Virus record (IMG/VR): IMGVR_UViG_3300046697_000072
Length of the DNA stretch: 64,000 bases
Direction: 5' to 3' (one strand)
Source: a virus
Within the stretch, counting starts at the first letter, position 1. Each line of letters opens with the position of its first letter. Below the pieces are notes generated by a model. It was given only the letters and a program-made list of their open reading frames with translations. It was not told the origin of the DNA and searched no databases. A program made the translations under genes and the position numbers. This document shows, in pieces, positions 689 to 26,409 of this stretch.

Positions 689-729
689 TCGGAGGCTGTC
701 TGAACAACAGCCCACAGGAGGAAGCGCCT

Positions 730-2168: not shown

Positions 2169-2383
2169 CCCGCTTGCTGCTGGACTTCCTGAAATACCTG
2201 GGATGGTGCCAACACACGAAGTATTCTTTCCCCCGCACTGACCCGGCCACCGGCGTTATGAGCACGGTCTGTTTGGACTGCACGCATCGCTTCGAGTACG
2301 ACTGGGAGCACATGCGCCGGGGTAAACCGGTGCCGGACCCCGCAACCCCGCGTCCAACGTTGCACAAGGAGGTGACACAGTGA
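2165..2383 (+). CDS. Hypothetical Cys-containing small protein (72 aa)
   Basis: Track ORF with ATGA overlap. Confidence 0.55.
   Translation: MTRLLLDFLKYLGWCQHTKYSFPRTDPATGVMSTVCLDCTHRFEYDWEHMRRGKPVPDPATPRPTLHKEVTQ
2352..2365. repeat. GTSCAACGTTGSAC dyad motif copy
   Basis: GTCCAACGTTGCAC directly abuts the SD AAGGAGG (2366-2372). GTG start at 2380. Confidence 0.9.
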
Positions 2384-2970: not shown

Positions 2971-3051
2971 TTCATCTCCTGTGGCTCTGCACCCTCCGGG
3001 GGGAGTGGTGGCGTTGCCCGTCCGCTCTCCCCGGTATGAAAGGATTCTCAT

Positions 3052-3289
3052 GAAAGACGATACACGAAGGAAAATCTTTTGTAAGGCTCGCCAATTGGGG
3101 TTCTCTGTCAAGATGTCTGCCGCCGCCTTTGACCTTGCCGCCCGCGCCTTATGCCGAATGGCACAGAACGGGGATAGCGACATCCGGAAAGCGCTGGAAC
3201 AGGAAGCCCCAGATATCGACGCGGCCACGGACTACGCGGCAGAAGTTTTGTGCCGTGCAACGTTGGATTGCTCTGAGGAGGTGAAATAG
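3052..3289 (+). CDS. Hypothetical protein (79 aa)
   Basis: Track ORF 2981..3289. ATG 3052 (MKDDTRRK) is preceded by AAAGGA. Confidence 0.5.
3255..3268. repeat. GTSCAACGTTGSAC dyad motif copy
   Basis: GTGCAACGTTGGAT (last base off consensus). Followed by SD GAGGAGG and ATG 3292. Confidence 0.85.
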
Positions 3290-4781: not shown

Positions 4782-4795
4782 GTGCAACGTTGGAC
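4782..4795. repeat. GTSCAACGTTGSAC dyad motif copy
   Basis: GTGCAACGTTGGAC starts 2 nt after the dnaN stop and abuts the SD AAAGGAG of the next gene. Confidence 0.9.
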
Positions 4796-7047: not shown

Positions 7048-7722
7048 GTGTCCAACGTTGAACTAACGTACAACGCCGAGAAGCACGAATACCGAATCGG
7101 GGGCCGAAAGGCCCCCGGCATAACGACCGTGCTTTCGGCCATGTCGTACTATCCCTCTCAGGGGCACTACACGGATGAGAGCCGCAGGCGTGGAACGGCA
7201 GTACACCACGCCTGCTACCTCCTGGACGAGCACTGCCCCCAGGCAACCACGGTCGATGAGGCCCTGGAAGTCCTGGACCTGGACGACCGCCTGATCCCCT
7301 ACATGCAGGGGTACTTGGCTTGGAAACGGGAGAGCGGGTTCATCCCTCAGAGGCATGAGTTTCAGGTTTGCTCTGCCAAGCTGAACATCGCGGCCACACC
7401 GGACCTGTACGGGATATTCCCCGGACCATGCGGAGGTGTGGTTGAACTGAAGACTTGGAAAGCCGCCCCGCCGAAGTGCCAGCGATCCGCTGAACTCCAG
7501 ACCGCCGCGCAAGCCTTGATGATCGAAGAATACCTGGGGCTCCCGGTCGAGCGCCGGGTGGTGGTGGCGTTGACCGGGAACCCGGATCACCCACACCGGG
7601 CTTACGTCTGTGACCGGCCCGGAGACAAGAACATCGTAGCGTTCCTGGCACACGTGTTCTGGGACCGCGTTAACTCCCGGTTGCTGGAATGGACCGGGGA
7701 GGAAGAGGAGGATGAAGAATGA
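7048..7722 (+). CDS. PD-(D/E)XK (RecB/Cas4/YqaJ-like) exonuclease, partner of the annealase
   Basis: N-terminal ...EKHEYRIGGRKAPGITTVL.... D...ELK core (ATPDLYG...GGVVELKTWK). Acidic tail EEEEDEE. Confidence 0.7.
   Translation: MSNVELTYNAEKHEYRIGGRKAPGITTVLSAMSYYPSQGHYTDESRRRGTAVHHACYLLDEHCPQATTVDEALEVLDLDDRLIPYMQGYLAWKRESGFIPQRHEFQVCSAKLNIAATPDLYGIFPGPCGGVVELKTWKAAPPKCQRSAELQTAAQALMIEEYLGLPVERRVVVALTGNPDHPHRAYVCDRPGDKNIVAFLAHVFWDRVNSRLLEWTGEEEEDEE
7050..7063. repeat. GTSCAACGTTGSAC dyad motif copy
   Basis: GTCCAACGTTGAAC overlaps the GTG start codon (7048), giving the N-terminus (M)SNVEL. Confidence 0.85.
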
Positions 7723-9646: not shown

Positions 9647-9868
9647 ATGGAAAACAGAACAGCACTCGAATCAAGCAATCTGCATAGCGCCGGATGGGAA
9701 TCCGGCATTCTCGAAGTCGCGTTCCGAGACAAAACCGGGGCTGTCCGGGCCGTGTGGCAGTACTCGGCACCCAAGGAAGCCTACGACGGCCTGATTGCCG
9801 CCGAAAGTTCCGGGAAATACTTCAACTCTTCCATCAAGGGCGTCTTCGACGGACACCGGGTTGACTAG
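9647..9868 (+). CDS. KTSC domain protein
   Basis: ...SSNLHSAGWESGILEVAFRD...VWQYSAPKEAYDGLIAAESSGKYFNSSIKG... matches the KTSC pattern. AGGAG SD. Confidence 0.75.
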   Translation: MENRTALESSNLHSAGWESGILEVAFRDKTGAVRAVWQYSAPKEAYDGLIAAESSGKYFNSSIKGVFDGHRVD

Positions 9869-9870
9869 CC

Positions 9871-10116
9871 ATGTCCAACGTTGCACTGACCATACAGGAG
9901 CGGATCAATCTGGTCCGCTCCGCGATTGAGAAAATCCGGGATGCTGAAGCCCAGTTGAAGGAGTTCGGTTGTACGAGTTCCGAGAAGCCTTTCTTCGATC
10001 TGGTTAAGCGAGCTGAGGCTAGGGGCCGTCTCGAAGCCGCCCGATACAATTGGCGCGGACAATGGTCCAACGTCGAAGTCATCTTGCAGGAAGGTCTGAG
10101 AGAGGAGCTGCGGTAA
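9871..10116 (+). CDS. Hypothetical protein (81 aa)
   Basis: Track ORF. ATG lies 2 nt after the upstream stop. N-terminus MSNVAL is encoded by the dyad motif. Confidence 0.55.
   Translation: MSNVALTIQERINLVRSAIEKIRDAEAQLKEFGCTSSEKPFFDLVKRAEARGRLEAARYNWRGQWSNVEVILQEGLREELR
9873..9886. repeat. GTSCAACGTTGSAC dyad motif copy
   Basis: GTCCAACGTTGCAC overlaps ATG 9871. The 18-mer ATGTCCAACGTTGCACTG is identical to 59490-59507 on the minus strand. Confidence 0.9.
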
Positions 10117-11886
10117 GTGGGGCTGCGACCGTATCAGCAGGAGGCAATCCAGAGCATACAGGACGAGTTCTCCCATGGGATCTCCCGGCAACTGGTCGTG
10201 ATGGCCACGGGATTGGGAAAGACGGTCGTAGCTGCCCACGTTCCGCACTTCATGCCGAAACGTAAGCGGGGAATGTTCATCGTACACCGGAACGAACTTT
10301 GCCTACAGGCCCAACGTCAGTTTGAGAAACACAATCCCGAACTGAAGGTCGGAGTGGAACGAGCGGAATACCGAGCCGGTGATGCCGACATTGTGATCGC
10401 CTCTGTCCAGACCATCGGCAAGATGAACGGAGACGGCAAACCCGGTGACCGGCTCAAGCAGTTCCGGCCCGATGATTTCTCGTGGGTCATCTGTGATGAA
10501 GTTCACCACGGGACCTCGGACACGTACCGGGCGATCTTCCGGCACATGCGGGTTCTGAAGGGGGAGCCGGACTGTAACGAATTCAAGCTGTTCTGCGGCA
10601 TAACCGCGACTCCAAACCGTTCAGATTCGATAGGGTTGGAGTGCCTGTTCGACAAGATAACCGTAGTCAACGACATCCGATTCGGAGTCCGGGAAGGCTG
10701 GTTGTCTCGTATTCATTGCAACGTAGTGGAGACGGAAATAGATCTCAGCCGCGTTCACATTACTGCCGGGGACTTCAACGCGGCGGAACTCAGCGCAACC
10801 GTGGATACTCCCACCAGGAATGAACTGATCGCGCAAGAGTACTTGAAGAACCGGCCAGACGGGCCATCGTTCTTCTTTGTTGTCGATATAAACCACGCCC
10901 ATAATCTCTCGGAAGTCTTACGCGGGCACGGGATACGCACCTATGCCATCTCTGGGAAGACTCCGGAAGATGAGTGCCGCCGCTTCATGAAGATGATCAA
11001 TGAGGGATCGATAGACGGGCTGGCCTCCGCAGGTAAGTTGAACGAGGGCGTTGACGCTCCCAGGGTTTGCGCAGCTTGGATGTGCAGGCCGACAAAGAGC
11101 CAACTCCTCTATCAGCAGATGGTGGGCCGAGTTTTGAGGCCATTCCCCAGTCCGGAAGACCTACAGGCGTTGTCCAACGTTGGACAGGCCCCGGCATGGG
11201 TCAAGCCCTTTGCGTCCATCACGGACTTCGTAGACATCTGCGGGAGGCACAGCTTATGCACAACCCCGACTCTGTTCAGCCTTCGGCACAAGTTTGACGC
11301 GAAGCGCAAGGATATCATCGAAGCCGTTGAAGAGATCGAGGCGTTGGAGGCCGAGCACCCCGGTCTGGACTTGCGGAGCGCCCCGAACCTGGACGCGATC
11401 AAGACCTCGCTGCACCGGCTGGATCTTCTTGCTACCCCAACCACTCCGCCCGAGCTTCGCAAGATCAGCAAGTTCGTATGGCTGAAAGAGCAGGAAGATT
11501 CTTTCCACCTGGGGCTTATGGATGGGGCGCTTTTATCAGTGCGCGTGAACACCCTTGGCCAGTGGGATGTCTACCGCCACATGAAGGGTATCCGGACCAA
11601 ACTCTGGGTGGCACACGATCTCAAGGAGGCCGTGCAGAAGGCCGAAGAGGAGATCCCCTCAAGGGAGGCTCGAATCCTCTCTGCCGAAGCTGGCTGGCGT
11701 CGAGAGGGGCCTACCGAAAAACAAGCGGCACGATTGATTATGCGGGACCACAAGCTCCGTCAGGAGTTCGGTAACTCCGAAAATCTGTACGCTTTCCTGT
11801 GTGACCGGTTTGAGCATGGAGATCTATCCGCGTCACGCGGAAATATATCCGCCCGCATCTCGTCACTTGAGGAAGCAAGACGTTAG
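10117..11886 (+). CDS. SF2 (DEAD/DEAH-like, ResIII + helicase-C) helicase with C-terminal extension
   Basis: Motif I MATGLGKT, motif II ICDEVHHG, motif VI QQMVGRVLR. GTG start after GAGGAG. Confidence 0.85.
   Translation: MGLRPYQQEAIQSIQDEFSHGISRQLVVMATGLGKTVVAAHVPHFMPKRKRGMFIVHRNELCLQAQRQFEKHNPELKVGVERAEYRAGDADIVIASVQTIGKMNGDGKPGDRLKQFRPDDFSWVICDEVHHGTSDTYRAIFRHMRVLKGEPDCNEFKLFCGITATPNRSDSIGLECLFDKITVVNDIRFGVREGWLSRIHCNVVETEIDLSRVHITAGDFNAAELSATVDTPTRNELIAQEYLKNRPDGPSFFFVVDINHAHNLSEVLRGHGIRTYAISGKTPEDECRRFMKMINEGSIDGLASAGKLNEGVDAPRVCAAWMCRPTKSQLLYQQMVGRVLRPFPSPEDLQALSNVGQAPAWVKPFASITDFVDICGRHSLCTTPTLFSLRHKFDAKRKDIIEAVEEIEALEAEHPGLDLRSAPNLDAIKTSLHRLDLLATPTTPPELRKISKFVWLKEQEDSFHLGLMDGALLSVRVNTLGQWDVYRHMKGIRTKLWVAHDLKEAVQKAEEEIPSREARILSAEAGWRREGPTEKQAARLIMRDHKLRQEFGNSENLYAFLCDRFEHGDLSASRGNISARISSLEEARR
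11172..11185. repeat. GTSCAACGTTGSAC dyad motif copy (perfect palindrome)
   Basis: GTCCAACGTTGGAC lies inside the helicase gene, just after motif VI, and is read as LSNVGQ. Confidence 0.9.
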
Positions 11887-11936
11887 AACCCTGAACACGG
11901 CCGGTGGCGTTACGCCCGGCCACTGAAAGGAGAATC

Positions 11937-12164
11937 ATGGAACGTGTAGAGGTAACAAACGGATTTTTGGGGATCTGCCACATGCAGGTTTGTGCGGTGG
12001 CCGATGCTACCGACGATGAAATCCTGGAGGTGTGCGACTCGCGTAACCCCTCAGGAACATCGAACGGATGGTGCCACGTAATCAGAGAATCGGAACATCC
12101 GAACATGCAGCCGGTAGCCTGCAAGGAACACCCGGAGCGAAAGCATTTCCTGGTGGCCTGCTAA
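11937..12164 (+). CDS. Hypothetical Cys/His-rich protein (75 aa)
   Basis: AAGGAG lies 6 nt before ATG 11937 (track ORF 11904..12164). Confidence 0.55.
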   Translation: MERVEVTNGFLGICHMQVCAVADATDDEILEVCDSRNPSGTSNGWCHVIRESEHPNMQPVACKEHPERKHFLVAC

Positions 12165-12301
12165 TGACCGAGGCCTTGCAATCCCTCACCGCCCGGGCCA
12201 TCGACCACTGGCCCGGCATACTGGTGCCCATCGTTCTGTTGGGCTTCATTGGGATGGTATGGACGGCTACGGTGTGGGCATTCAGGAGAAAACAACGATG
12301 A
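12164..12301 (+). CDS. Small membrane protein (45 aa)
   Basis: TAATG overlap. One hydrophobic helix, WPGILVPIVLLGFIGMVWTATVWAF, followed by RRKQR. Confidence 0.5.
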   Translation: MTEALQSLTARAIDHWPGILVPIVLLGFIGMVWTATVWAFRRKQR

Positions 12302-12373
12302 CATACGAATTTCGCAGTAACGGACGGCCCGAGATCGAGCACTTCGACACCAAGGTCAGGAGTTTGACGATTG

Positions 12374-12697
12374 ATGGATAAAATAACCCCGCTGTGGCGG
12401 TCTTACGAATATGGCTTGCGGAATGGTTGGGGACAGCACCCGACTAAGGGCGCTGCGCTGCTGGACTCCGCCGCGCGCTCCCTGGTGGACGGCGAACCGG
12501 TCCTGGCGACTCCTAAGGAGATTTCCGAGGCCCTGGGAACCAATCCGTCGATTATGGGTATGTGCCCATTCTGTGGCGCACATCCGCTGACTCCCTTTTG
12601 TGGCCCGAGATGCCGTGCGGAGCATTCTCCCGATTGCGAGGCACTGGAGGGAAGCCATCAGTGGGTGAAGGACAGGGAGGCCGCTTGTGGCCTGTAG
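12374..12697 (+). CDS. Hypothetical Cys-rich protein (107 aa)
   Basis: Track ORF 12371..12697 with ATG at 12374. Contains CPFCG...CGPRC. Confidence 0.5.
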   Translation: MDKITPLWRSYEYGLRNGWGQHPTKGAALLDSAARSLVDGEPVLATPKEISEALGTNPSIMGMCPFCGAHPLTPFCGPRCRAEHSPDCEALEGSHQWVKDREAACGL

Positions 12698-12872
12698 AAT
12701 ATGCGGTCGAGGAGCGTGTACCGAATCCTTCCATTCGATCCAAGATCAGGAAGAGTGGCAAACGAAGACGGGCCGGTATGCCCCCGAAGATACAGAGGAT
12801 ACCCAGCACCGCGAGCAGGACGCCGCTGCGATTCTGGTAGAGCGGGCGGAGGAAATCGGAGAGAATCGGTGA
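12687..12872 (+). CDS. Hypothetical small protein (61 aa)
   Basis: AGGGAGG lies 6 nt before GTG 12687. N-terminal CRICGRGAC. Ends at the hairpin at 12868-12884. Confidence 0.4.
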   Translation: MACRICGRGACTESFHSIQDQEEWQTKTGRYAPEDTEDTQHREQDAAAILVERAEEIGENR

Positions 12873-12884
12873 GGCTACCTCACC
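12868..12884. terminator. Hairpin between convergent blocks
   Basis: GGTGAGG-cta-CCTCACC between the rightward block end and the fibre-gene stop (12893). No U-tract on either strand. Confidence 0.3.
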
Positions 12885-12892
12885 ACTCCCCG

Positions 12893-15800
12893 TTACCGTG
12901 TTACCGTGCCGCTCCCGAACACGGGCCGGTAGGTCACGACGCCAGAGACCCCCATCAGGATCGCGGCCTCTCCTGCCCGGAGCGAGACGCTCGTCACCGG
13001 AGCGCCCAGAGTTCCGTCCGCGCTCAGAAGCTGGTACGTGCCCCCCAAGGCGATGGCCTGCGATGGCGTATCCAGTTCGGCCTCCAGGTGCAGGCTGCCC
13101 CGAAACGGCCTCATTAACACGATGCCATTCGTGAAATCCCGCCGCCATACGTTCGGGCATCCGCCGGTTGAGCAATCTCCAAGAGGAGAGTGCCCAGAGA
13201 TCGCGCTGCCGTACAACCAGGGCGTCCCCCCGGTTTCATCAGCCGCACGAACGCCGGCCCTGTACCCTGCAGTGTTTGGAACACCCAGATCCACGCCCAT
13301 AGCTGGAAACCAGGTGGTCCAACCCCATACGTTCGCCACGGACGGACTTGTAATGGCAGCCAAGTGCTGAGACTGAATGCAGCTTGCCGCCGCGCCAGCG
13401 AGGTACGAATTGTAGATCGGGCTTGTGGTGCTGAAAATCTTCCAGTCAGAACTGCGGATCGTGCTCACTGTTGGCTGATGTCCCGTCGTGTCCAGGGTGC
13501 CCGTGATCCAATACGCGGTCACTCCCCCTATCGAGGTAGTGGCCCAGTCGCCGGGTGGGGTGAATGTGATTGTCCCCGAGTTGTGGAGGACGTTCGTGCC
13601 GTCTGCCACTGTCAGTGCCACCTGAGCCGAACCATTCCAATAAGTCCAAGTGAGATACGCGCCACCTGACGGATCAACCACGCCGAAAGACAGGTGGCTG
13701 AACGGTGTAGAATACCCGGCCTGAATCGTGGCAGTCGGGTACGAACCCAAGAGCATGGTGGGTGATCCACCCCACGCCTGCAAAGAAACATCCCCTCCGA
13801 GGACCCGAACATAGCCAGGAGCCGATGCTTTTACCACATCCCCCGACGGTCCCAACTGCATCACTATCCCATTTGCCTCAAACACGCTCCCCACACAAGT
13901 ATCGACACTCATCAAGCTGATCGCCTTGGCGCCGGATGACGTATCTGCTGGAATAGGGGACGCCAAAGTGGTAGGCGTGTCGTATGTGTCCACTTGATCC
14001 GTGACTAAATAGTACCCGACAATCTCTTGCCCACCGTGATACATGTACCCCGTGTTGCTGTTGGTCCCCATATAGTGCATGGCCAGGGTGAGCATAGGTG
14101 TGCGGTTCGCTCGGTCCACAAAATGCCAAGTCGCCATCGAACCATTTCCCGGACTCCAACTTGATGCCGCGTTGAGGGAACTGGTGTCATAGAATGCCGT
14201 GTATACCTTGACGTTGTTCGGGTTGTTCGCCGTCAAAAAGTCGTCGTAGTTAACACAGCAGGCCCCCCCAAACGTGTAATCCGGGAAAGGATTCCGGGTG
14301 GCTGCCGCCGAGTAATAGTTGCCCGGCATGATCGCGGTTTCGAGCAGGTTCGCATCTCCGATCGGGTAGCCTCCCAAGAGCAAGGTCTGTCCATTGTTCG
14401 TGACCCAGAAGTTAGAGCCATGCTCAGACTTGAGGCGGGCAATCAATTCGGTGTGGAGCGCCCCCCACGCAGGCAACCAACCCTCGGTGTGATTGTAGTC
14501 CAGCGAGGCATCGGCATTCGAGGGCAGATTCGTCGCATCGTCATAAAACACGGCGTCGTAATTGTCGGTTGGGTTGAGGGCTGAATCTACTATGTCTGCA
14601 AGCGCCCGTCCCCAAGTCCGAATGCCGCTTTGAACATCGGACGGATTGCCGTACATGTTATTGCCGCCAGCTGTGGCGCGAGCCTGATATTGGAACTTGG
14701 CGGAAGCGGTTCCCGGTGGCGTCGGGTTGTACTCTAGGCGCGTTCCCACGTTAATCCGATTCGCGTCTGTTGCGTTCCATCCCCTGAAGGTATTGCCTGC
14801 CGACGAGACTGCCCAATCGTCACCCTTCACGGTGGAGTATATCGGAGAAACCGATGCACCGCTCACTACGATCTGCACCCAGTATTTCAGGTGAGTGGTC
14901 GTAATTGGGAATGGAGTCGTCACGTTCACCGTGAGAGTTTTCTGCGCCCAGTCCGACGGCGGATACCAGTATACCTTGCCAGAGGTCGTCAACCCCGAAG
15001 TTCCATCCGAGAGGTGACTCGATAGCGCGGTCCATGCTGAACCGTTCCAGTAATTGTAGGCCACCGTCCCACCCGTCCGGGCGGTTGTAATGGCAAAGTT
15101 CATCTGGTCGAACGGCTCCTGATAGCCAACGTATAAGGTGCTGGCTACGGTCGTGGTCGGAGAACCGAACCAGCTTCCATTCGTCACGTCGGCGTAAGCG
15201 CCGCTCGAATACGTGAACACGCCGCCGTCGTAATTTCCCCCACCCAGGTAGGGCTCGAAAGCGTCGAACCGAGTCATGTCTGATGTATACGCGGTAAGGG
15301 CTGAATCCACGTTGGCGTGGAGGTACATGTTCTCCAGTACGAATCCGTTAGTTATCGCTGTGTCTTGCGCCAAGTATCCAACCTCGGCGGTGAAGTCTGG
15401 CATGTCCTTATAAGTCGAGTAGTACGTCTTCGTGAGATTCCCGCCATGCGCATCTCCAGTACCGCCGCCACCGAGAACCCAGTCGAAACGGCTGCCCAAC
15501 CAGGTGTTGATTGTGCTCCAGAGCCCTGGCGGAGTGGTGTACTGGCCGTAGTCTACTATGGCCGTTGAGAGGTGTGGGAAATGGGGCGTGTGGGCTGCCA
15601 CCGTCATCGGCGCAACCGTGAAAGGAGACGAGTAGCCGGAAGTCCCTCCGGCGGCGGTAACGTCCATCTTCCACGATCCAGCCGTAAGGGATTGACTGTT
15701 GACGGTCAAGAGCGTCGAACTGTTGACGGTCACGCTGGAAGCTGCCGTGCAAGCTCCGCCTCCAGTCGGACAAAAGTTGACGCCCACGGGGGCAATAAAG

Positions 15801-16576
15801 GTGGTCCCTATGATGGAAGCGTTGAACGGAACCGACGGCCATGGAGATCCAGCCGATAGCGTATAGCCGCTCAGTGTAGGCGCGGCCGGCGCGACGTAGG
15901 GCTTGAACGCCGCGATCAAAGCTGCCGATGCGTTCGTGGTCGGAGAGAGCGCCCACGTCGGATTGCGTGCGGTGGCCGTCGCTTGGATCTCATAAGCGAG
16001 ACCCACTGAGTTGTTCGTGCCATTCGAGGAGGCCACATGCTGCGCGTAGTTGGAACTGAAAGGAGAATCTACACCGCTGATGTCGATGCTCTGGTACGTG
16101 CCTCCTACCGTTATCAGCAGTTCCCCGTTTCCGGCTGGCGTGAGCGTTCCAGGCTGGAGTGTTGCTCCTGTATCCTGGCCGCCGCCCGTAATCGCGTCCA
16201 ACACCAGACTTGATGCCGTACCCGAAAATGCGGTCACAGCAAAACTCATGTAGGCACCATAGGTTGTGAACGTGTGGCCCGTTCCCACGCTCGTCGGAAT
16301 GCTGTACCAGAGCGTCGCGTTCGCTGCCATCCCTGGTGCATGATAAGTTCCCGCGCAGGTCCATCCGTTACTCTTCGAATCGGCTACACCGTAGCTGCAA
16401 TTTCCACCCGTGGTGTAGTTGGATAGACCAATGACCAGCAGGGTGGCTCCAGTGGTGTCAATTGCAGACGTGGTAGTCGTCGCAAGGTTGCTCGGGTTCG
16501 CCACACTCGTGCTGGCCACGGGAGCGATCTGCCCCCACGCCGGAGCGCAGAGCAAGAGGATGAGCAGGGGCCTCAT
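12893..16576 (-). CDS. Giant fibre/depolymerase-like protein with N-terminal signal peptide (1227 aa)
   Basis: Track ORF 12893..16606. ATG 16576 forms an ATGA overlap with the upstream gene. N-terminus MRPLLILLLCAPAWGQ-IAPV. T/S/G-rich, beta-rich composition. Confidence 0.75.
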   Translation of the reverse strand: MRPLLILLLCAPAWGQIAPVASTSVANPSNLATTTTSAIDTTGATLLVIGLSNYTTGGNCSYGVADSKSNGWTCAGTYHAPGMAANATLWYSIPTSVGTGHTFTTYGAYMSFAVTAFSGTASSLVLDAITGGGQDTGATLQPGTLTPAGNGELLITVGGTYQSIDISGVDSPFSSNYAQHVASSNGTNNSVGLAYEIQATATARNPTWALSPTTNASAALIAAFKPYVAPAAPTLSGYTLSAGSPWPSVPFNASIIGTTFIAPVGVNFCPTGGGACTAASSVTVNSSTLLTVNSQSLTAGSWKMDVTAAGGTSGYSSPFTVAPMTVAAHTPHFPHLSTAIVDYGQYTTPPGLWSTINTWLGSRFDWVLGGGGTGDAHGGNLTKTYYSTYKDMPDFTAEVGYLAQDTAITNGFVLENMYLHANVDSALTAYTSDMTRFDAFEPYLGGGNYDGGVFTYSSGAYADVTNGSWFGSPTTTVASTLYVGYQEPFDQMNFAITTARTGGTVAYNYWNGSAWTALSSHLSDGTSGLTTSGKVYWYPPSDWAQKTLTVNVTTPFPITTTHLKYWVQIVVSGASVSPIYSTVKGDDWAVSSAGNTFRGWNATDANRINVGTRLEYNPTPPGTASAKFQYQARATAGGNNMYGNPSDVQSGIRTWGRALADIVDSALNPTDNYDAVFYDDATNLPSNADASLDYNHTEGWLPAWGALHTELIARLKSEHGSNFWVTNNGQTLLLGGYPIGDANLLETAIMPGNYYSAAATRNPFPDYTFGGACCVNYDDFLTANNPNNVKVYTAFYDTSSLNAASSWSPGNGSMATWHFVDRANRTPMLTLAMHYMGTNSNTGYMYHGGQEIVGYYLVTDQVDTYDTPTTLASPIPADTSSGAKAISLMSVDTCVGSVFEANGIVMQLGPSGDVVKASAPGYVRVLGGDVSLQAWGGSPTMLLGSYPTATIQAGYSTPFSHLSFGVVDPSGGAYLTWTYWNGSAQVALTVADGTNVLHNSGTITFTPPGDWATTSIGGVTAYWITGTLDTTGHQPTVSTIRSSDWKIFSTTSPIYNSYLAGAAASCIQSQHLAAITSPSVANVWGWTTWFPAMGVDLGVPNTAGYRAGVRAADETGGTPWLYGSAISGHSPLGDCSTGGCPNVWRRDFTNGIVLMRPFRGSLHLEAELDTPSQAIALGGTYQLLSADGTLGAPVTSVSLRAGEAAILMGVSGVVTYRPVFGSGTVTR

Positions 16577-19128
16577 TGCACCTTCACTCCCTTGCAGAGG
16601 ATGCACTGCTTTATAGGCGACGCGCCGGCCCCTTCCGTGATCTGGTAGACGTGCGCTCCGTATGCGCCGAATGAATCCGTGAACGTGGAACCACTTGGCG
16701 TGATCGTGCGGCTCTCGTTGTAGACTGTCACGGTCGAAATCGGAGCGTGCCAGGTGAATGTCGGGGCCACTGTCCCGCTGGTGGTGTTGCTGGCGATCAA
16801 GGTCGGAGTCGCCCCGGACTTTACGCGCGTGTGGACGGTGGCCGTATCGTTGCTAGTCAGTTTGGTATTGTCATCCAACGCGGCGAGAGGAGTGGCTAAA
16901 CCATCGATCTCTCCTATGACGTTCTTCAAATTGGTCCAGTTTGCAATCCATGTTGCATTTTGTAGACTTCGAACGGTTCCATCGAACGATCCAGAGAAGG
17001 CCGATGAGTTCACGGGTATAGTGAATGTATTGGCATCTATGACCGTAGGCCGGTAGCTCTGATCGTTCATGGCAGACCAGCTACCAGTCGCGCCGTAAGT
17101 ATAGACGTAGCTAAAATCAGCAGTCAATCCGTGCCCAGGGATAGTAAACGTCGTTACCGCTCCCTTGGTCACAGTGTCTAGTGCTGCATTCGTATCATCG
17201 ACAGGCGTCCCCGTCCCAAACACTAAGTGCCCGTTGAATGTACCAGCGAAACCGGTAGAGTTTACTGGAACGGTGATATTGGATGAACTAGACGTAGCGG
17301 TAATCGTCTGCGCTCCATTCAGCGCAGTCCAATCTCCCGTAGCCCCGGTGATTGTGGCGCTGCACGTCCCCCCGCACTGCGGATGCCAAGGCGAAATAAT
17401 AGTCGTTGGAGACCCAGGAGTCACAGACGTAATACCGCCTAGTTCCGTAAAGATAGAACTCAACTGCCCCGCAGACCAGTACATCAATCCATTGGCTCCG
17501 TCTGCTACTGCCATGTAGCTCATATCTCGCAGTTCGGCCTGTGTGGGCCATCTAATAGTTCCAGTAAACTGGAAGTACTGAATAACAGTCATTACTGGGC
17601 GTGATGATTGAACCGCTGACATTGCAGCAGTTGTCCATGTGCTCACTTCGTTGAGTGGGTAGCCAGATCCTTCGGCTCCAAACAGGGGGTACGGATCGGT
17701 AGCCAAAATATCCACGGTATCTCTCCACAGGGGTAGAGAGGAGTCCCCCAACTGAGCTCCGAGTATGGCCGCTCCTGGTGCCAACCTATCAGTGCGGGCC
17801 TTCGTCGCAAACGTGGTGGCTGCCACCGATGCGGCGCATTCGTCTGTACGATAGATTCCCCAAAACCCAGGCATTGCCGCCCGCGCTTCTATCTCCGCGT
17901 CTGACCCGATGTACCAAAAAAAGCTCGAACCTGGGATGCTGGTGGTTACGCAGTTATCTGTTTCTATCCACCCCACACCACTACCGTAAGTCTGGAGAGC
18001 TGCAATGAATGGGGAGGCTGCCAAGTTTGCCAAGTCTCCCATCCAGTAATTCAAATAGAGATTCACTCCCGTGAGCCCAGACAACTCTATCGTGCTATTC
18101 AATTGGTTCAGGAAAAAGGATTCTGAGGTGCTGTACCCGCCCCCTGAGTCATACAACCCCAACATGAACGTCGGCACACCGTTTTTCAAAATTCTCTGAT
18201 TCTGGTCTGCGCTTGTCTGGAATCCGGTGCGCGTGCTCCCTGGGTATTTGTAGATCGAGTAGTATGGATACTGATTGTTGGAACTTGCGTTTCCTCCACT
18301 GGAAGTCTGAGTCAACTGAAACGACACACGGTACTCAGTGGACTCCGAGAGTGCGGCCATGTCAAAGGTTGCCGTGGTGCTGGCTAACGCGGGCCACGAT
18401 CCCGCCAGAACTGTGGTTCCATCCGCTGTCTTGATTGTGCCATCAACCGTGTAGTCAGAAAGCGTCAAGTCTGTTGGATACATCCCCTGTGATGGATTTG
18501 GGACCACACTGAAAGTTGTGATCTGTGATTGATCGTCAAACAGCATCCCCTTCCAATTCGGGTACTGCATGAAGACAGAGATCGGCCTCTGCTCTTGGGT
18601 AAGTACTACATCATCGAACCAAGCCGTTCCGCTGGTGCCATTGTAGGCTGCCTCAAGACTCACTTGGATCTGAGCCGCGCTGCCCAAGGATAACCCCGGA
18701 AGAAGTATCTCGGTCCAATCATTTGTCCCCGTTAACGCTGGCGAGGAAGTCCAGATCAATGCGTAAGGAAATGACGGAGGAGCAAATACGCTCACTCGCA
18801 CTCCATTTCCCGTTATTGAGCTAGTCTTTACCCACACGCTCAAGTCATACACTCCTGCTGGCTGTGTGGAGATAGTCTGCTGAAGATTCACAACAGACCC
18901 GGAGAGGACCATCTTGGCGCTGTATGTACCAGTGTGTGCGTAATCACTAGCCACAGTAATGGCCCCCCCTCCGCCAGTCCAACCCGTGAAGTCCCCAGAC
19001 TCTAATCCAGGATTGGATAGAAGGTTGGAGCTAGGAACTGCTGCGGGATAGGAAGACAGTCCGCCGGGAGTCTGTGCCAAAGCAGTGCTAGCAAGCGCCA
19101 GAAAACACAGTAATTGTTTCATAGTCAT
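16573..19128 (-). CDS. Secreted-type CBM (CBM4/9-like) plus glycoside-hydrolase-like depolymerase/fibre (851 aa)
   Basis: N-terminus MTMKQLLCFLALASTALAQ-TPGG. Then NPGLESGDFTGWTGGG...HTGTYSAKM...WFDDVVL, the typical CBM4_9 pattern. Confidence 0.7.
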   Translation of the reverse strand: MTMKQLLCFLALASTALAQTPGGLSSYPAAVPSSNLLSNPGLESGDFTGWTGGGGAITVASDYAHTGTYSAKMVLSGSVVNLQQTISTQPAGVYDLSVWVKTSSITGNGVRVSVFAPPSFPYALIWTSSPALTGTNDWTEILLPGLSLGSAAQIQVSLEAAYNGTSGTAWFDDVVLTQEQRPISVFMQYPNWKGMLFDDQSQITTFSVVPNPSQGMYPTDLTLSDYTVDGTIKTADGTTVLAGSWPALASTTATFDMAALSESTEYRVSFQLTQTSSGGNASSNNQYPYYSIYKYPGSTRTGFQTSADQNQRILKNGVPTFMLGLYDSGGGYSTSESFFLNQLNSTIELSGLTGVNLYLNYWMGDLANLAASPFIAALQTYGSGVGWIETDNCVTTSIPGSSFFWYIGSDAEIEARAAMPGFWGIYRTDECAASVAATTFATKARTDRLAPGAAILGAQLGDSSLPLWRDTVDILATDPYPLFGAEGSGYPLNEVSTWTTAAMSAVQSSRPVMTVIQYFQFTGTIRWPTQAELRDMSYMAVADGANGLMYWSAGQLSSIFTELGGITSVTPGSPTTIISPWHPQCGGTCSATITGATGDWTALNGAQTITATSSSSNITVPVNSTGFAGTFNGHLVFGTGTPVDDTNAALDTVTKGAVTTFTIPGHGLTADFSYVYTYGATGSWSAMNDQSYRPTVIDANTFTIPVNSSAFSGSFDGTVRSLQNATWIANWTNLKNVIGEIDGLATPLAALDDNTKLTSNDTATVHTRVKSGATPTLIASNTTSGTVAPTFTWHAPISTVTVYNESRTITPSGSTFTDSFGAYGAHVYQITEGAGASPIKQCILCKGVKVQ

Positions 19129-19138
19129 TGTCTCATGG

Positions 19139-19885
19139 TCAGGGGTGTATGGTTATGATAATCCCGCCACCAGTTACACTGCGATCTCCGGTCGCCGTTG
19201 CGGTATAAGCTGCCTTAGCTGATACCGCTGCGGTCTCCAACAGCACGTTTCCGGGATTAGTGGGGCTCCGTTGCTGAAAACTAATGGGCGAAGATTCTGG
19301 AGTAAAGTTTATGCACCACGGGTAATCTGGCTGGACCGCAGACAAAACCGCCACTAATGCTTCATTTGTGTAGCTGGTGGTTGCTGTGGTTCCAGTCGTG
19401 TACGTGGAAGTTGCCACAAAGGTGCTGGTGGCATACAAATCAACCGGCGATGCGGACGCCCCGCTATACTCTATGACGTTTGTTATGTAGTTTGAGTTTG
19501 TGCCGCTACAGAAAATAGACACCGTAGTAGCCCCAGTAGTTGCTACGCTTGCCCACCACGCGGCGGTCTCAGTGACGCCGGAAGTGTCCAGGTAGTCAAC
19601 AATCAAATGCCAAGTCACAGCATTCGGCGTATTTGAAACCGTAAAACTAGAGCAGGTCGAGCTTGTGACGGCTCCGAAGACAAATAGTTTATAGCCGGCA
19701 GTGGGCGAGTAGCTAACGCTATCGCTGTAAGCCGACACGGAATGTGATGCGCTTCCCACGTAGGCTGGAGCTGCTGAATCGGCCGCCGTCTGATACATCC
19801 CCGGCCCCGGAAACGGGAACATCTGAAACATCGGCCCCAGGAGGGCGCGAAGCATTAGAGTTGCGATTGCGATTGTGCTGGTCAT
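19139..19885 (-). CDS. Fibre-associated protein (248 aa) with hydrophobic N-terminus
   Basis: Track ORF 19139..19984. ATG 19885 forms an ATGA overlap with the upstream stop. N-terminus MTSTIAIATLMLRALLG.... Confidence 0.6.
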   Translation of the reverse strand: MTSTIAIATLMLRALLGPMFQMFPFPGPGMYQTAADSAAPAYVGSASHSVSAYSDSVSYSPTAGYKLFVFGAVTSSTCSSFTVSNTPNAVTWHLIVDYLDTSGVTETAAWWASVATTGATTVSIFCSGTNSNYITNVIEYSGASASPVDLYATSTFVATSTYTTGTTATTSYTNEALVAVLSAVQPDYPWCINFTPESSPISFQQRSPTNPGNVLLETAAVSAKAAYTATATGDRSVTGGGIIITIHP

Positions 19886-21693
19886 CGGGTTACACTCCAA
19901 TTTAAGGTTACTGCTCCTGGAACGATGGCCGTTCCTGTTTTGTTTGCCAGGCGGAAATGCACGTAACCAGCGGTGGGCCACCAATACACAGCCAAGCCGT
20001 CTGTGGTCAGTGCTCCGTAGCCGGTGACCCCGCTAATGTCAGCATTTGGAGTGATGTAAATTGTGTCGGTTGAAACTACTCCGGTTGCAACCACATTCGT
20101 GGCCGTGTCTTGTGCGTTCAGCGCAATTGAGGTTGTGCGAAGCGCCTGCGCTCCAGCAGCGATCCTGATAGGGCTGTTCGGCATGATCCAATCTGTTCCG
20201 TTGTAGTAGAGCAGCACGGGCACGCTAGTTTGAAGTTCGCTTCCCAACAGAGCCGCTCCGTTGTGAAAGATCGGAACCGCGCCCCCTGAGTTGATCGCCA
20301 GCGTCATGGTTGAGGCGTTCACCGCGCCAGGAACGAACCAGATAAAATCCCCGGTGGCGAGCGTGAACGTGGGAGCTAGAGTACAGGTCTGGGCCGACGT
20401 GCTGGAAGACCCCGTGCAGGTCATCGGCACCGTGATGTTATGCGCTGTAGCTGCCACAGGAGCGCCATAGGCCCCAGTCCCAACAAGATTAGCCGAAGCG
20501 GGCACCGCAACCGCAGTAGGGGCAGCCGCGCCGCTGGTGTTGTTCAGCAGTTCGGTGGCGCTGGCCTGTGTTGCTAAATTCGTGAGCGGCACTGTCGGCG
20601 TGCAGGATGTACCGCTCGTGCAGGTTGTTCCGTAAACGCTCACGGTCGGATTCGACTTGTGAACCACGCCCGCGGGGGTGATGTAATCCACCCACTGGTT
20701 ACTCGTGGCACTGGATTCGGGTGCCACCATCGTGCCGGTTAGAACGCTTGAGGCATTTAGGTACTGCGGCATGTGGGCCGTTGAATCCAGATAGACTGTC
20801 GGAACCGTAACCGTAGGAGCGGCCTCTTCCAGTCCCTGCAATAGCAGAGCCGTGCTCGATCCAGTGCTGAACCCTCCATCGGCCTCAATGATTCCGCTGA
20901 CGTTGATGTTCCCTGTCTGCTGTGTGCCAGGAGCAGAGGATTGCAGGTTCACGCCAGCGACAGACCCTGTTGGCACTACGAACGCCGAACCGTTCCACGA
21001 ACACATGGAATAGGTGGGTATCGTGCCGCCACCCGTTGGAGGACATGCCCCGGCTACGGTGGCATCCGTAAACAACATCGTGTCACCGGCAGACGGAGAT
21101 CCGGGCTTGCTCCCGAAAACGCCACGATAAGTGAAGCCTGTGCCGTTCGTGCCCGCTGCACCGTTCGTTCCGTTCGTGCCATTGGTCCCGTTGCTGCCTG
21201 CCGCTCCAGTTGTGCCCATCGCGCCCGTCGTTCCGGTAGCGCCCTGTATGCCTTGGATTCCCTGAATACCTTGCGAACCTGTTGCGCCAGCCGCACCCTG
21301 TGGCCCAACCAACGACGTGCAGGTCCCTGGCCACGCCCCCGCCGCCTTGGGGCCGTACATGCAAGTGGTGTCGGTCTTCAGGTAGAAGTCCCCGTTGTTT
21401 CCCCCGGATGGCGCACCGGTCCCATTGAGGATCGAGTTTCCGTTGGTTCCGTTCGTTCCATTCCCGGCGATGACTTCCCAGGAATAACTTCCTGACCCAA
21501 CTTGGGAGCACCCGTAGAGGCTGGCATTCGCCGCTTGGGTGTTTTTCCGGTAGTAGACCTTCCCTACGTCACTGATGGTTCCACAGCCGCCCGATGGGGC
21601 CCCCGTGCCACTTGTGATCCTCTGTGCCGTCGAAGTGAACTGCGCCAACACCGGGGTGGACAGGAACAGGATTGTTGCCAGTAAGCGTTTCAT
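19882..21693 (-). CDS. Collagen-like-repeat fibre protein with signal peptide (603 aa)
   Basis: ATG 21693 follows GAGGTG. N-terminus MKRLLATILFLSTPVLAQ-FTST. A G-X-Y run, GPQGAAGATGSQGIQGIQGIQGATGTTGAMGTTGAAGSNGTNGTNGTNGAAGTNGTG, lies at about 21136-21306. Confidence 0.75.
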   Translation of the reverse strand: MKRLLATILFLSTPVLAQFTSTAQRITSGTGAPSGGCGTISDVGKVYYRKNTQAANASLYGCSQVGSGSYSWEVIAGNGTNGTNGNSILNGTGAPSGGNNGDFYLKTDTTCMYGPKAAGAWPGTCTSLVGPQGAAGATGSQGIQGIQGIQGATGTTGAMGTTGAAGSNGTNGTNGTNGAAGTNGTGFTYRGVFGSKPGSPSAGDTMLFTDATVAGACPPTGGGTIPTYSMCSWNGSAFVVPTGSVAGVNLQSSAPGTQQTGNINVSGIIEADGGFSTGSSTALLLQGLEEAAPTVTVPTVYLDSTAHMPQYLNASSVLTGTMVAPESSATSNQWVDYITPAGVVHKSNPTVSVYGTTCTSGTSCTPTVPLTNLATQASATELLNNTSGAAAPTAVAVPASANLVGTGAYGAPVAATAHNITVPMTCTGSSSTSAQTCTLAPTFTLATGDFIWFVPGAVNASTMTLAINSGGAVPIFHNGAALLGSELQTSVPVLLYYNGTDWIMPNSPIRIAAGAQALRTTSIALNAQDTATNVVATGVVSTDTIYITPNADISGVTGYGALTTDGLAVYWWPTAGYVHFRLANKTGTAIVPGAVTLNWSVTR

Positions 21694-21700
21694 GGTCACC

Positions 21701-22024
21701 TCACAGGAGCCCGTACAAGTACTGAACGCCGTCCCCGGAATTGTCCAAATCAACGTAGACGGTCCTCAGGTCGTAATCATGAACCGGCCATGCGACACTC
21801 GCATCTCCGGGGTGGATCGGGCATCCGGAGCCGGAAGGGATCGCCCCGGAATCAGCAGCATTGGGGACCCCGCCGATCCGGACTTCTCCGACGTTCGCTA
21901 CCCCGCCTACAACACGGGGAAAGAACGTGATCCATGTTGCCGGGACGGGATTCAGACCCGAGGCTAAAGGAACGGCGGTTCCAGGGGTGGTGGAAGTTTT
22001 GAAGCCGTGATACAGTGCGGCCAT
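21701..22024 (-). CDS. Hypothetical protein (107 aa)
   Basis: Track ORF. GGTGAGG SD before ATG 22024. Upstream member of the fibre operon. Confidence 0.6.
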   Translation of the reverse strand: MAALYHGFKTSTTPGTAVPLASGLNPVPATWITFFPRVVGGVANVGEVRIGGVPNAADSGAIPSGSGCPIHPGDASVAWPVHDYDLRTVYVDLDNSGDGVQYLYGLL

Positions 22025-22091
22025 AGGTATACCTCACCCCGATGCTACACCTTATTTAGCTTGATTTCAAGTGCTTGAGCGGGTAATTCTG

Positions 22092-22247
22092 TCAGGCTGC
22101 GGCTGCGGAGTCCAACGTTGCACAAGCCAACGCCGACTCGGTGTCTTCCCGCTTCTGCTCAGGATCGAACGGGACGGACAGGGCTTCGGCCAGGAGAGTG
22201 ATCTCGTCCTCGTCGTAGTCGAGTTTTCGTAGCCAGTGCCGATCCAT
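22092..22247 (-). CDS. Small acidic ORF (51 aa), absent from the ORF track
   Basis: Hand translation: MDRHWLRKLDYDEDEITLLAEALSVPFDPEQKREDTESALACATLDSAAAA*. First ORF downstream of the promoter at 22272-22299. Confidence 0.4.
   Translation of the reverse strand: MDRHWLRKLDYDEDEITLLAEALSVPFDPEQKREDTESALACATLDSAAAA
22110..22123. repeat. GTSCAACGTTGSAC dyad motif copy
   Basis: GTCCAACGTTGCAC in the last codons of the 51-aa ORF (read as ATLD), about 85 nt upstream of ATG 22024. Confidence 0.9.
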
Positions 22248-22739: not shown

Positions 22740-23303
22740 ATGCATTCTGACGCTTTGAAATCCTTCAGGGTTGACCTTTCTGAAGATCGACTCGAATCCC
22801 TCTTTGAAGAATTTCTCGTAATGTTCCTGGGGGAATGTAACGAGGAGCCCTCCTTCATTCTGTTCACTGATAAACACCGGCAGAAACTGATCGATCTTGT
22901 TGGTGAGGCATACACGACTTCCCGGCACTACAACCAAATAGCGGAGTGGTCAATTGCTTGGGAAAACGGTAAGGCCGATGCCGACCAGATACTCTCTGTT
23001 TATGTTTTCGACCACTGTAGAACCCTTGAACAGGCAGAGGAACACCTTCGGGAAATGAAGTCTCTCCCGTATGTGGAATTCCTTAAGACGGATTACTGGT
23101 CAATCGTGCGGCGGGCCGTCATACGGATGCACAACGGGAAATGCGGGGTTTGTCTGTCTTCCGACCATCTCCACGTTCATCATAAATCCTACGATCACCA
23201 CGGGGAGGAGCATGAACATCTTGAGGATTTGATCCCATTATGCCGTTCGTGTCACGAAAAGTTTCACAATAAAGTCCCAACTCCCGGAGTATCTGCTCAA
23301 TGA
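22740..23303 (+). CDS. HNH-motif nuclease-like protein (187 aa)
   Basis: GAGGTGG SD before ATG 22740 (track ORF 22566..23303). C-terminal CGVC...HVHHKSY...LIPLCRSCHEKFH. Confidence 0.65.
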   Translation: MHSDALKSFRVDLSEDRLESLFEEFLVMFLGECNEEPSFILFTDKHRQKLIDLVGEAYTTSRHYNQIAEWSIAWENGKADADQILSVYVFDHCRTLEQAEEHLREMKSLPYVEFLKTDYWSIVRRAVIRMHNGKCGVCLSSDHLHVHHKSYDHHGEEHEHLEDLIPLCRSCHEKFHNKVPTPGVSAQ

Positions 23304-26230: not shown

Positions 26231-26409
26231 CGCCGAGTACAACGTTGGACAAAGGCAAACGGGACACTTGCAAGGGCTGCGGTGCTACCATCTGGTGGCG
26301 TCCGTGGCCGACAACCGGGAAGATGCACCCGTTCAATGAGAACGGGACTTCGCATTTCGGGACATGCCCGAATGCTTCCCAATTTCGGAAACCGAGGGTA
26401 AAGGCATGA
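26227..26409 (+). CDS. Small zinc-ribbon-like protein (60 aa)
   Basis: ATGA overlap with the dnaB stop. Contains CKGCG...GTCP. Confidence 0.55.
   Translation: MTPSTTLDKGKRDTCKGCGATIWWRPWPTTGKMHPFNENGTSHFGTCPNASQFRKPRVKA
26237..26250. repeat. GTSCAACGTTGSAC dyad motif copy
   Basis: GTACAACGTTGGAC (position 3 is A) covers codons 4-8 of the 26227 ORF (TTLD). Confidence 0.8.

Follow-up and report, generated by a model that had tools for sequence, protein, structure and literature searches.

A 14-base dyad dispersed over the genome of an uncultured phage is a candidate multi-copy operator at gene junctions and promoters

In the Streptomyces phage phiC31, conserved inverted repeats (CIRs) recur across the genome, mainly within short intergenic stretches and some of them at promoters, and are reportedly bound by the phage repressor. 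Operators of dimeric Xre/Cro-type helix-turn-helix (HTH) proteins, such as the Cro and cI proteins of 434 and P22, the C-proteins of restriction-modification (R-M) systems, SinR, and HigA, are usually clustered at one or two promoters and often autoregulated. The OB operators of KorB on the IncP plasmid RK2, and sites of the ParB-parS type, are palindromes of 13–16 bp with a central CG that are scattered over a mobile genome. In the Cluster A mycobacteriophages (L5, Bxb1), one copy of the stoperator serves as the operator at a promoter, and the motif variants diverge between related phages (PMC6550527, PMC9283540). The start-associated sequences (SAS) of Cluster K are asymmetric 13-bp elements that contain the Shine-Dalgarno (SD) core AGGAG and lie 3–7 bp from the start, in one orientation and in the non-structural half of the genome; for the inverted repeats of the extended SAS (ESAS), the authors thought protein-binding DNA sites more likely (PMC3203893). 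Here we describe a 14-base near-palindrome, GTSCAACGTTGSAC (the dyad), in a 64-kb stretch of viral DNA, IMG/VR record IMGVR_UViG_3300046697_000072 (the window, that is, the whole stretch analysed). With moderate confidence, we regard the dyad as a DNA-level, multi-copy operator at gene junctions and promoters that is predicted to be bound by a phage-encoded dimeric regulator, and not as a translation-start signal.

The window has a G+C content of 57% and is ~97% coding, and its 75 genes were called with an ad hoc codon and ribosome-binding-site model, which agreed with the stored gene calls of near-identical metagenome contigs. When up to two mismatches were allowed, the dyad matched the window 23 times, compared to 0.86 expected and a shuffle maximum of 3. 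It is an inverted repeat of the half-site (A/T)GTSCAAC; all 14 positions are constrained, including the centre, and there is no conservation in the flanks past the W at ±8. Lone half-sites were not enriched (13 versus 17.6 expected), indicating that the complete dyad is the functional unit, consistent with a dimer. Most sites (15/23) pair GTCCAAC with GTGCAAC (mixed half-sites), three pair GTCCAAC with itself, and none pairs GTGCAAC with itself (GTGCAACGTTGCAC) (p ~0.01 and 0.02). This pairing leaves a residual asymmetry at positions 3 and 12, without orientation bias, and abolishes the RNA or cruciform hairpin, whose energy goes from −4.9 kcal/mol to 0 or −0.6. The intragenic copies use all three codon frames, and a protein-coding repeat was thus ruled out. 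A second abundant repeat of the window, AGAGGTTCGCACCGGAGAGG, was dropped as a relative of the dyad, being the tandem 15-nt coding repeat of a pentapeptide protein. The literature on CAACGTTG yielded only primers and CpG oligonucleotides. Searches for the exact 14-mer in IMG/VR and GTDB genomes gave single chance-level matches among those listed, with no relatives, prophage or host regulon.

Diverged contigs were fetched via homologues of a 1096-aa protein, RecT, and an HTH protein encoded in the window; a search of IMG/VR for loci related to the 1096-aa protein returned none. A dyad family, GTCCA-N4-TGGAC, recurs in these relatives with lineage-specific forms, as follows.

L083, RecT 91% identical: the window's 14-mer, 7 copies in 17.5 kb, all with mixed half-sites
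L080, 1096-aa protein 50% identical: AGTCCAAC(N)GTTGGACT, 14 or 15 bp, 5 copies
L084, RecT 42% identical: ATGTCCA-N4-TGGACAT, 6 copies
L207, HTH protein 50% identical: GTCCAATATTGGAC, 4 copies, TA-centred
L082 and L085, distant: few or no dyads

The 23 copies in the window are given below without strand.

675–688: dyad GTGCAACTTTGGAC, one mismatch; intergenic, 48 nt past the stop at 627 and 41 nt before ATG 730
2352–2365: dyad GTCCAACGTTGCAC; last codons of gene 2165–2383, adjoined by AAGGAGG and then GTG 2380; kept at L083 4695
3255–3268: dyad GTGCAACGTTGGAT; 3ʹ end of gene 3050–3289, GAGGAGG next, 23 nt before ATG 3292
4782–4795: dyad GTGCAACGTTGGAC; 3 nt past the stop of the pol III beta gene (4779), adjoined by AAAGGAG and then GTG 4811 (RecT); kept at L083 7964
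7050–7063: dyad GTCCAACGTTGAAC; overlaps start GTG 7048, 6 nt past the stop at 7044; kept at L083 10599
9873–9886: dyad GTCCAACGTTGCAC; overlaps start ATG 9871, 5 nt past the stop at 9868; L083 has two such copies, at 13657 and 13844
11172–11185: perfect palindrome GTCCAACGTTGGAC; inside helicase gene 10117–11886; L085 has the related site GTCTAATATTGGAC at the aligned position, L083 has none
22110–22123: dyad; divergent, promoter-rich control region, 39 nt upstream of the −35 of the leftward promoter 22070–22042 (centre ~−81.5)
23903–23916: dyad; linker of the O-like replication initiator gene 23300–24523; the L080 copy is within ~5 codons of the aligned position
26237–26250: dyad GTACAACGTTGGAC; codons 4–8 of the 60-aa Cys-rich gene 26227–26409, 7 nt past the DnaB stop
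27055–27068: dyad GTGTAACGTTGGAC; overlaps the stop at 27060, 24 nt upstream of the −35 of promoter 27093–27121; syntenic dyad and promoter at L080 17981
30199–30212: dyad; 3ʹ end of gene 29787–30224, ends 8 nt before ATG 30221
31530–31543: dyad; low-complexity linker of a 928-aa ORF containing sigma70_r2; the L080 copy is ~15 alignment columns off
36830–36843: dyad; 3ʹ end of gene 36801–38504 (minus strand), 35 nt upstream of ATG 36794 (1096-aa gene)
39491–39504: perfect palindrome; inside the acetyltransferase-like gene 39173–39721; its counterpart is the L080 copy at 7274
41869–41882: dyad, one mismatch; inside the 1549-aa gene
45181–45194: dyad, one mismatch; inside the 1549-aa gene, ~200 nt from the gene start
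51397–51410: dyad; codons 11–16 of the 1740-aa gene (start 51442), 29 nt past the stop at 51439
54315–54328: dyad; intergenic, 3 nt past the stop at 54332, 27 nt upstream of the −35 of promoter 54287–54259
56031–56044: weak dyad, two mismatches; inside gene 55692–56438, possibly a chance match
59492–59505: dyad; inside a 746-aa methyltransferase/glycosyltransferase gene, in-frame ATGTCCAACGTTGCAC (MSNVAL)
62019–62032: dyad GTGCAACGTTGAAC; ~+10 to +23 of promoter 62077–62049, adjoined by AGGAG and then ATG 62004 (minus strand), an operator-like position
63628–63641: weak dyad, two mismatches; inside gene 63365–64000, possibly a chance match

Copies occur in the capsid and large-structural-gene region and in the replication region alike, with a mean spacing of ~2.8 kb, and roughly half of them are intragenic. 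This dispersal resembles that of the Cluster A stoperators, which number 20 to thirty-odd copies of 13–14 bp over early and late regions, often in tiny gaps; here there are 23 copies in 64 kb, with 11–13 at gene junctions. Stoperators are asymmetric, bound by a monomeric repressor, and lie predominantly in one orientation (PMC6550527), whereas the dyad is of the symmetric type and its asymmetric form lies at junctions in both orientations relative to transcription (6 versus 5, no bias); no stoperator-like orientation rule was found. Stoperators are sites of the immunity repressor of temperate phages, which have an integrase or parABS, and elongating RNA polymerase is stopped by the bound repressor; no integrase or partition gene was found in 74 kb of the ~104-kb genome of the dyad phage.

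The initial annotation had described the dyad as docked onto translation starts, directly upstream of the SD or overlapping the start codon. Every coordinate it gave for the copies at 2352, 4782, 3255, 30199, 62019, 7050, 9873, 675, 36830, 26237, and 51397 was correct, and the proximity itself was borne out: 11 of the 23 dyad centres lie within 50 nt of a start, compared to 11.5% of genome positions (binomial p=1.7e-5). For copies wholly in coding sequence, 8 of 18 were near a start versus 9.7% (p=1.4e-4), indicating that the enrichment is not due to intergenic bias alone. The distances to the nearest stop, however, were as small as those to the nearest start and often smaller, which makes the gene junction, not the start itself, the enriched feature. 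Six centres lie 1–14 nt past an upstream stop, compared to 1.6% of the genome (p=1.5e-6), and five lie 15–31 nt before a start, compared to 1.9% (p=7e-5), both intervals having been chosen after seeing the data. The spacing from dyad centre to start at junctions ranges from −48 to +38 with no fixed value, and 12 of the 23 dyads are more than 50 nt from any start.

When the lineages were pooled, 13 copies begin 0–7 nt past a stop, with the next start +8 to −156 away. Two orders recur at tight junctions. In one, stop, dyad, SD and start follow each other, with the start 14–17 nt past the dyad; six cases were found in three lineages (window 2352, 4782, and 62019; L083 4695 and 7964; L207 461). 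In the other, the stop is followed after 2–5 nt by a start codon fused to the dyad (7050, 9873, three L083 copies, and L084 9836). In wide gaps, the dyad adjoins the preceding stop with a promoter downstream of it (27055, 54315), sits by the start (62019), or stands mid-gap (675). Even orthologous junctions are not alike in this respect: from window 4782 to L083 7964 the dyad-to-start distance changes by 2 nt. This pattern is expected when a 14-bp DNA site must fit into a genome with almost no spacer. A variant of the dyad is also present at the pol III beta–RecT junction of L084. The stored RecT call (P0009, 636 aa) begins at TTG 4790, inside the dyad; we preferred GTG 4811 because the SD AAAGGAG lies 8 nt upstream of it. 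Several small Cys-rich genes touch dyads (26227–26409, 26836–27060, and 2165–2383), and in L084 an uncalled 53-aa Cys-rich ORF at 9836–9997 (MSNLGHRQYRCLECKD...) begins exactly at the pol III beta–RecT dyad.

Taken together, the part of the initial annotation that concerned gene boundaries stands, in that copies are enriched there and a stoperator-like roadblock at junctions fits the evidence, whereas docking onto translation starts does not hold. Its likening of the dyad to the Cluster K SAS, as an element acting on ribosome loading or RNA, also failed. Both are short repeats recurring near gene starts, but the dyad lacks an SD (where one is present, it follows the motif), occurs in both orientations, has centres without fixed spacing, shows no RNA fold in its common asymmetric form, and is found in the structural region too. 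About half of the copies are intragenic, and the most deeply conserved ones are intragenic or promoter-adjacent, not SD-adjacent.

Sigma-70-type promoters of the form CTTGACA-17/18-TAnnnT are clearly recognisable in the few intergenic gaps of the window, and their leaders measure 0–38 nt. Of ~11 strong promoters of the TTGACA type in these gaps, four lie within 85 nt of a dyad (p=0.003), the dyads having their centres at ~−81.5 (22110), −66.5 (27055), −69.5 (54315), and +16.5 (62019). These promoters, and a terminator beside one of them, are as follows.

22042–22070, minus strand: promoter TTGAAA-17-TAGCAT, dyad upstream
27093–27121, plus strand: promoter TTGACA-17-TAGAAT, dyad upstream
54259–54287, minus strand: promoter TTGAAA-17-TATGAT, dyad upstream; serves a 384-aa gene, probably the major capsid protein
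62049–62077, minus strand: promoter TTGACA-17-TAGCAT, dyad just downstream
62089–62120, minus strand: intrinsic terminator-like hairpin with a 14-pair stem, 11 of them G-C, and a T-run, directly upstream of promoter 62077–62049

Counted from the dyads, a strong promoter follows in the next 70 nt in 3 of 23 cases (2.9% expected, p=0.03). The dyad at 62019 follows a strong terminator and a promoter and precedes the SD of a 135-aa gene. At the syntenic place in L207, a terminator is followed by TTGACT-17-GACAAT with the dyad at 5639 inside the spacer and the −10, which is a classical repressor position. In L080, one dyad lies 10 nt upstream of TTGACT-18-TAGCAT, before a homologue (32% identical) of the window gene at 27143, and is syntenic with window 27055; a second lies 7 nt upstream of TTGACG-18-TATACT, before tRNA-like sequences. 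The latter sequences occupy L080 22960–23213, after the dyad and promoter at 22904–22955, and carry GGTTCGATTCC T-arm motifs. The 135-aa gene (61597–62004, minus strand) is assigned PF24729 Acb2_Tad1_hairpin, an anti-CBASS/Thoeris sponge fold, in a precomputed table, an unconfirmed assignment with no Pfam match at E<=0.1. The dyad itself was rejected as an extracytoplasmic-function (ECF) sigma or phage-sigma promoter, as it has no bipartite spacing, occurs in both orientations, and sometimes overlaps a start codon, and as an N4-type hairpin promoter, as its stem is broken by the mismatch at positions 3 and 12.

Conservation of the sites in the relatives points to selection on the DNA. In the acetyltransferase-like gene, the dyads of the window and L080 fall in one alignment column at 28% protein identity, with a different codon frame in the left half (SPTLD in the window versus VQPLD in L080). 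In the sigma-like ORF, both dyads lie within one low-complexity linker, and the dyad of the helicase gene is common to the window and the distant L085 (LSN[VI]GQ), whereas the close L083 lacks it. Some intragenic copies hold their position in proteins just 20–28% identical, once in a shifted frame, indicating that the DNA is under selection, and this placement argues for a cis-acting role tied to the neighbouring genes. Places that are symmetric in L080 have mixed half-sites in the window, which indicates that the asymmetry arose by parallel changes and not by copying. The centre and spacing of the dyad differ among related phages (CG, C-N-G, N4, TA), a pattern expected of a diverging phage-encoded specificity and not of a fixed host factor.

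Some observations on these loci stand apart from the conservation of the dyad. Directly 3ʹ of the dyad at 675, 25 nt (window 689–713, TCGGAGGCTGTCTGAACAACAGCCC, hairpin GGCTGT/ACAGCC) are 100% identical at L083 3563–3587, with both flanks and the dyad itself diverged; this is a second conserved element upstream of an SD. The 928-aa ORF (30721–33507, minus strand) has a weak match to sigma70 region 2 at residues 792–840. Its versions in relatives have 669, 716, or 1269 aa, and in the strain L001 the sigma70-matching region is a separate 247-aa gene that starts 66 nt downstream of the dyad. Compared to the window, L083 has two extra small genes at 13272–13860, the second flanked by identical copies of ATGTCCAACGTTGCAC (13655 and 13842), resembling the gain or loss of a cassette between dyads.

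A candidate for the binding protein was found among the window proteins, in which it is the sole recognisable HTH.

57953–58195, minus strand: candidate binding protein, 80-aa Xre/Cro-type HTH
58202–58230, minus strand: promoter TTGACA-17-TATAGT of the HTH gene, ending 6 nt before its ATG; the arrangement is kept in L207 (9965–10003)

Its family matches were HTH_31 (E=0.0018), HTH_19, YdaS, and HTH_3 (residues 43–74), and were sub-threshold. The AlphaFold2 model of the protein has five helices with a mean pLDDT of 84, and its top structural matches in the Protein Data Bank (PDB) were HigA, C.Esp1396I on its operator, SinR, a Salmonella phage Rep, ClgR, YdaS, and AcrIIA15 on palindromic DNA. 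All of these are Xre/Cro-type DNA binders, matched with a probability of 0.9–0.99 and a TM-score of ~0.5 over ~50 residues; the weak E-values (0.4–1) are to be expected from the small size of the domain. Five candidate proteins searched by sequence against the PDB gave nothing meaningful. The position of the promoter end, 6 nt before the ATG, implies a leaderless mRNA. One homologue was detectable, P0130 on L207 (50% identical), and that contig also carries the TA-centred variant of the dyad; the start of the putative recognition helix differs between the two proteins (TPTY versus SPQY). A scan of metagenomes for further homologues yielded nothing beyond an identical short contig. As the sole candidate found, the 80-aa protein may be the dyad binder, as its co-occurrence with the dyad suggests.

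By analogy, the dyad appears closest in kind to the phiC31 CIRs, as these are reported, and to the operators of small Xre-type dimers. With the former it has in common a short conserved inverted repeat in many copies, placed at junctions or in intergenic gaps and in some cases at promoters, and a phage regulator as its ligand, which is presumed here. It differs from them in that there is no sequence or protein homology, about half of the copies are intragenic, one half-site is weakened, and no integrase was seen in 74 kb of the dyad phage. Xre/Cro-type operators are dyads of about 14–18 bp read by a dimer, with the full site as the unit, and the 14-bp dyad shares this form; the candidate ligand is predicted to have the Xre/Cro-type fold. 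Overlap with or abutment on the core promoter, which characterises such operators, is present in a minority of copies (L207 5639; window 62019 at ~+16), and the dyads are single and dispersed, with none at the HTH promoter. Unusual compared to known systems are the single-copy, evenly spread layout and the unexplained asymmetry of the half-sites.

The mechanism that we favour would be as follows. We infer that a dimeric, sequence-specific DNA-binding protein, most probably phage-encoded and with the 80-aa Xre-type HTH protein as the candidate, reads the dyad, and that the bound regulator would act on transcription. Promoter-proximal copies, at +16 of the promoter starting at 62077 (P62077) and inside the promoter spacer of L207, would serve repression, and copies 7–39 nt upstream of a −35 would exert some other modulation of sigma-70-type promoters. 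Copies in tight junctions or long genes might, like stoperators, serve as a roadblock or insulator to RNA polymerase, here in either orientation. The proximity to SD and start would be a by-product of packing, because in a genome that is ~97% coding a 14-bp site is cheapest after a stop, in the first or last codons, or in a variable protein linker. A bolder version, which we consider doubtful, is that a large, possibly strictly lytic phage would employ a small Xre-type dimer on ~30 single, evenly spread dyads, set right behind stops and in protein linkers, and that these would act between genes as roadblocks or insulators irrespective of orientation, with a strong half (GTCCAAC) and a weakened half (GTGCAAC) giving tunable occupancy.

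Several points weigh against the operator reading. The assignment of the HTH protein to the dyad draws on co-occurrence in two lineages, within ~74 of ~104 kb of genome, and the promoter of the HTH gene itself has no dyad. Most dyads are not promoter-proximal, as 19 of the 23 lack any recognisable sigma-70 promoter in the next 70 nt downstream, and those copies need the unproven roadblock or another role. The copies upstream of promoters (−51, −53.5, −66.5, −69.5, and −81.5) keep no single helical face, and no fixed helical phasing was found among them. The systematic weakening of one half-site is not accounted for by a simple homodimer. Finally, the dyads are never clustered, with a minimum spacing of 818 bp (P=0.0005), unlike classical operator arrays, and a genome-organising function would also suit this layout.

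Such a function is the first alternative, and in our view an unlikely one. Here the dyads would bind a protein that organises, partitions or replicates the genome, comparable to KorB-OB or ParB-parS on plasmids and to matS, SlmA, or Noc sites on chromosomes; their number and even spread would matter, and junctions and linkers would merely be the cheapest places. The over-dispersion of the copies speaks for this, as do the many dyads without a nearby promoter, the intragenic copies in variable linkers, and the one copy in the O-like gene ~150 nt from origin-like repeats. Palindromes of 14 bp with a central CG are typical of partition and organising sites, and like KorB and ParB sites the dyads stand at varying distances from promoters and also inside genes. 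Nevertheless, scans of the window proteins against Pfam, PHROG, and NCBIfam, of which the 60-protein scans list the most-matched families, reported no protein of the ParB or KorB type, and no partition genes were seen among 74 kb of the ~104-kb genome. In addition, one 11-kb module has no dyad at all, and positions are kept at specific genes and promoters in relatives 20–50% identical, which favours local cis roles over a function of copy number.

Just as unlikely is that the dyads are sites of a host transcription factor, a LacI/CcpA-like or CRP/Fnr-like dimer, which would couple phage expression to host physiology. The 14-bp palindrome with its central AACGTT and GT-N10-AC outline resembles operators of the LacI and CRP families, copies, like cre sites, are found ahead of, across, and behind promoters, and there is no clear phage regulator beyond one weak HTH match. 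However, the change of centre and spacing between related phages fits fast co-evolution with a phage-encoded specificity better, and all 14 positions are constrained, unlike in NtcA and CRP sites with their free centres; a GT-N10-AC site of the NtcA/CRP type was rejected on the same grounds. A scan of bacterial genomes for the exact 14-mer gave one match per stretch in the first 120 stretches among the matches listed.

The placement at gene borders would also be explained if the dyads were boundaries of recombination or gene cassettes, or footprints or targets of a mobile element or homing nuclease, which we judge quite improbable. The phage encodes RecT and several HNH endonucleases, two breakpoints between the window and L083 fall at dyads (3255, where the blastn match stops, and 9873), and L083 has its extra small gene between two identical copies of ATGTCCAACGTTGCAC. 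Yet the majority of mosaic breakpoints lie away from dyads, gene borders are the usual phage breakpoints anyway, and 14 bp is short for homologous exchange. Moreover, intragenic copies are conserved in place across deep divergence, and old orthologous sites that were once symmetric became asymmetric through parallel point changes rather than copying. An R-M or methylase site was rejected separately, as 14 bp is too long and the positions are conserved.

A role in translation or at the RNA level, as an SAS-like element, translational operator, or RNA-processing site controlling downstream initiation, is highly improbable and largely refuted by orientation and placement: in its favour are the six copies in three lineages that directly adjoin the SD and the post hoc interval of 15–31 nt upstream of starts, but the asymmetric form occurs in both sense-strand orientations, so that the RNA sequence differs between sites, the common form makes no hairpin, initiation regions, where they differ from shuffles, tend to have less structure (z +0.5 to +1.5; z −0.65 for the 4782 region), 12 of the 23 dyads lie far from any start, the spacing to the start at junctions is not constant, the distance to the start shifts between orthologues, the copies that relatives retain lie within genes or ahead of promoters and are hence partly untranscribed, and a search of the window against Rfam gave no family match. 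An RNA hairpin sequestering the SD was rejected in the same way, with the asymmetric form unfolded and the initiation regions unstructured.

Regarding the genome as a whole, the window proteins recur on a JGI contig of 103,751 bp whose order is a circular permutation of that in the window, which indicates a genome of ~104 kb, circular or terminally redundant; ~74 kb of it were covered. Genes run rightward at 1–12.9 kb and 22.7–30.6 kb and leftward at 12.9–22.2 kb and 30.7–64 kb. Recognisable products include RecT, the pol III beta clamp, a DEAD/ResIII helicase, DnaB, an O-like initiator, HNH endonucleases, a podovirus-type major capsid protein, sugar-modifying enzymes, and a pentapeptide protein. 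The largest ORFs of the window (1740, 1549, 1227, and 1096 aa) had no family match, megablast with 20 kb of the window found no match among GenBank phages, and the window contains no tRNA genes. At 11–256, 16 near-perfect tandem 15-nt units correspond to the pentapeptide repeats of ORF 1–627 (Pfam Pentapeptide, 1e-43), and the nucleotide identity between these units is unusually high for a coding repeat. The dyad-free stretch at 11186–22109 (11 kb) is a leftward tail-fibre-like module with a collagen repeat and CBM_4_9 that varies between strains (704 aa versus 849/851 aa), and may be a recently exchanged host-range module. An HNH endonuclease gene at 28598–29029 is also present in L002, with small ORFs in its place in L001 and L003, the kind of presence/absence polymorphism that homing endonucleases typically show. 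A-rich direct repeats at 23715–23761 (ACAGAAGA[A/G]TAC, ~3 copies), within the gene of the O-like initiator, lie in the part of the window with the lowest G+C content, ~150 nt upstream of the dyad at 23903, and may be a lambda-style origin inside the initiator gene. The dyad was rejected as an iteron of this initiator, as it is present as a single copy in the gene and the nearby, different A-rich repeats are more iteron-like.

Because nearly all large proteins of this uncultured lineage lack a family match, the dyad offers one of few ways into its regulation, and it defines a testable regulon of ~23 sites, four promoters, and one candidate HTH protein. Intragenic copies that are kept in place, one of them with the frame shifted, clearly illustrate how a signal in the DNA constrains the sequence of a protein. 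The proximity of a motif to the SD can be a packing artefact in a compact genome, which calls for caution in inferring translation control from proximity alone. The variants of the dyad in sister phages (CG, C-N-G, N4, and TA) form a natural set for studying how a regulator and its site co-evolve. If the bolder version were true, the dyads and the Xre-type dimer would constitute a genome-wide device that times transcription elongation, separate from lysogenic immunity, with a specificity that diversifies between sister phages.

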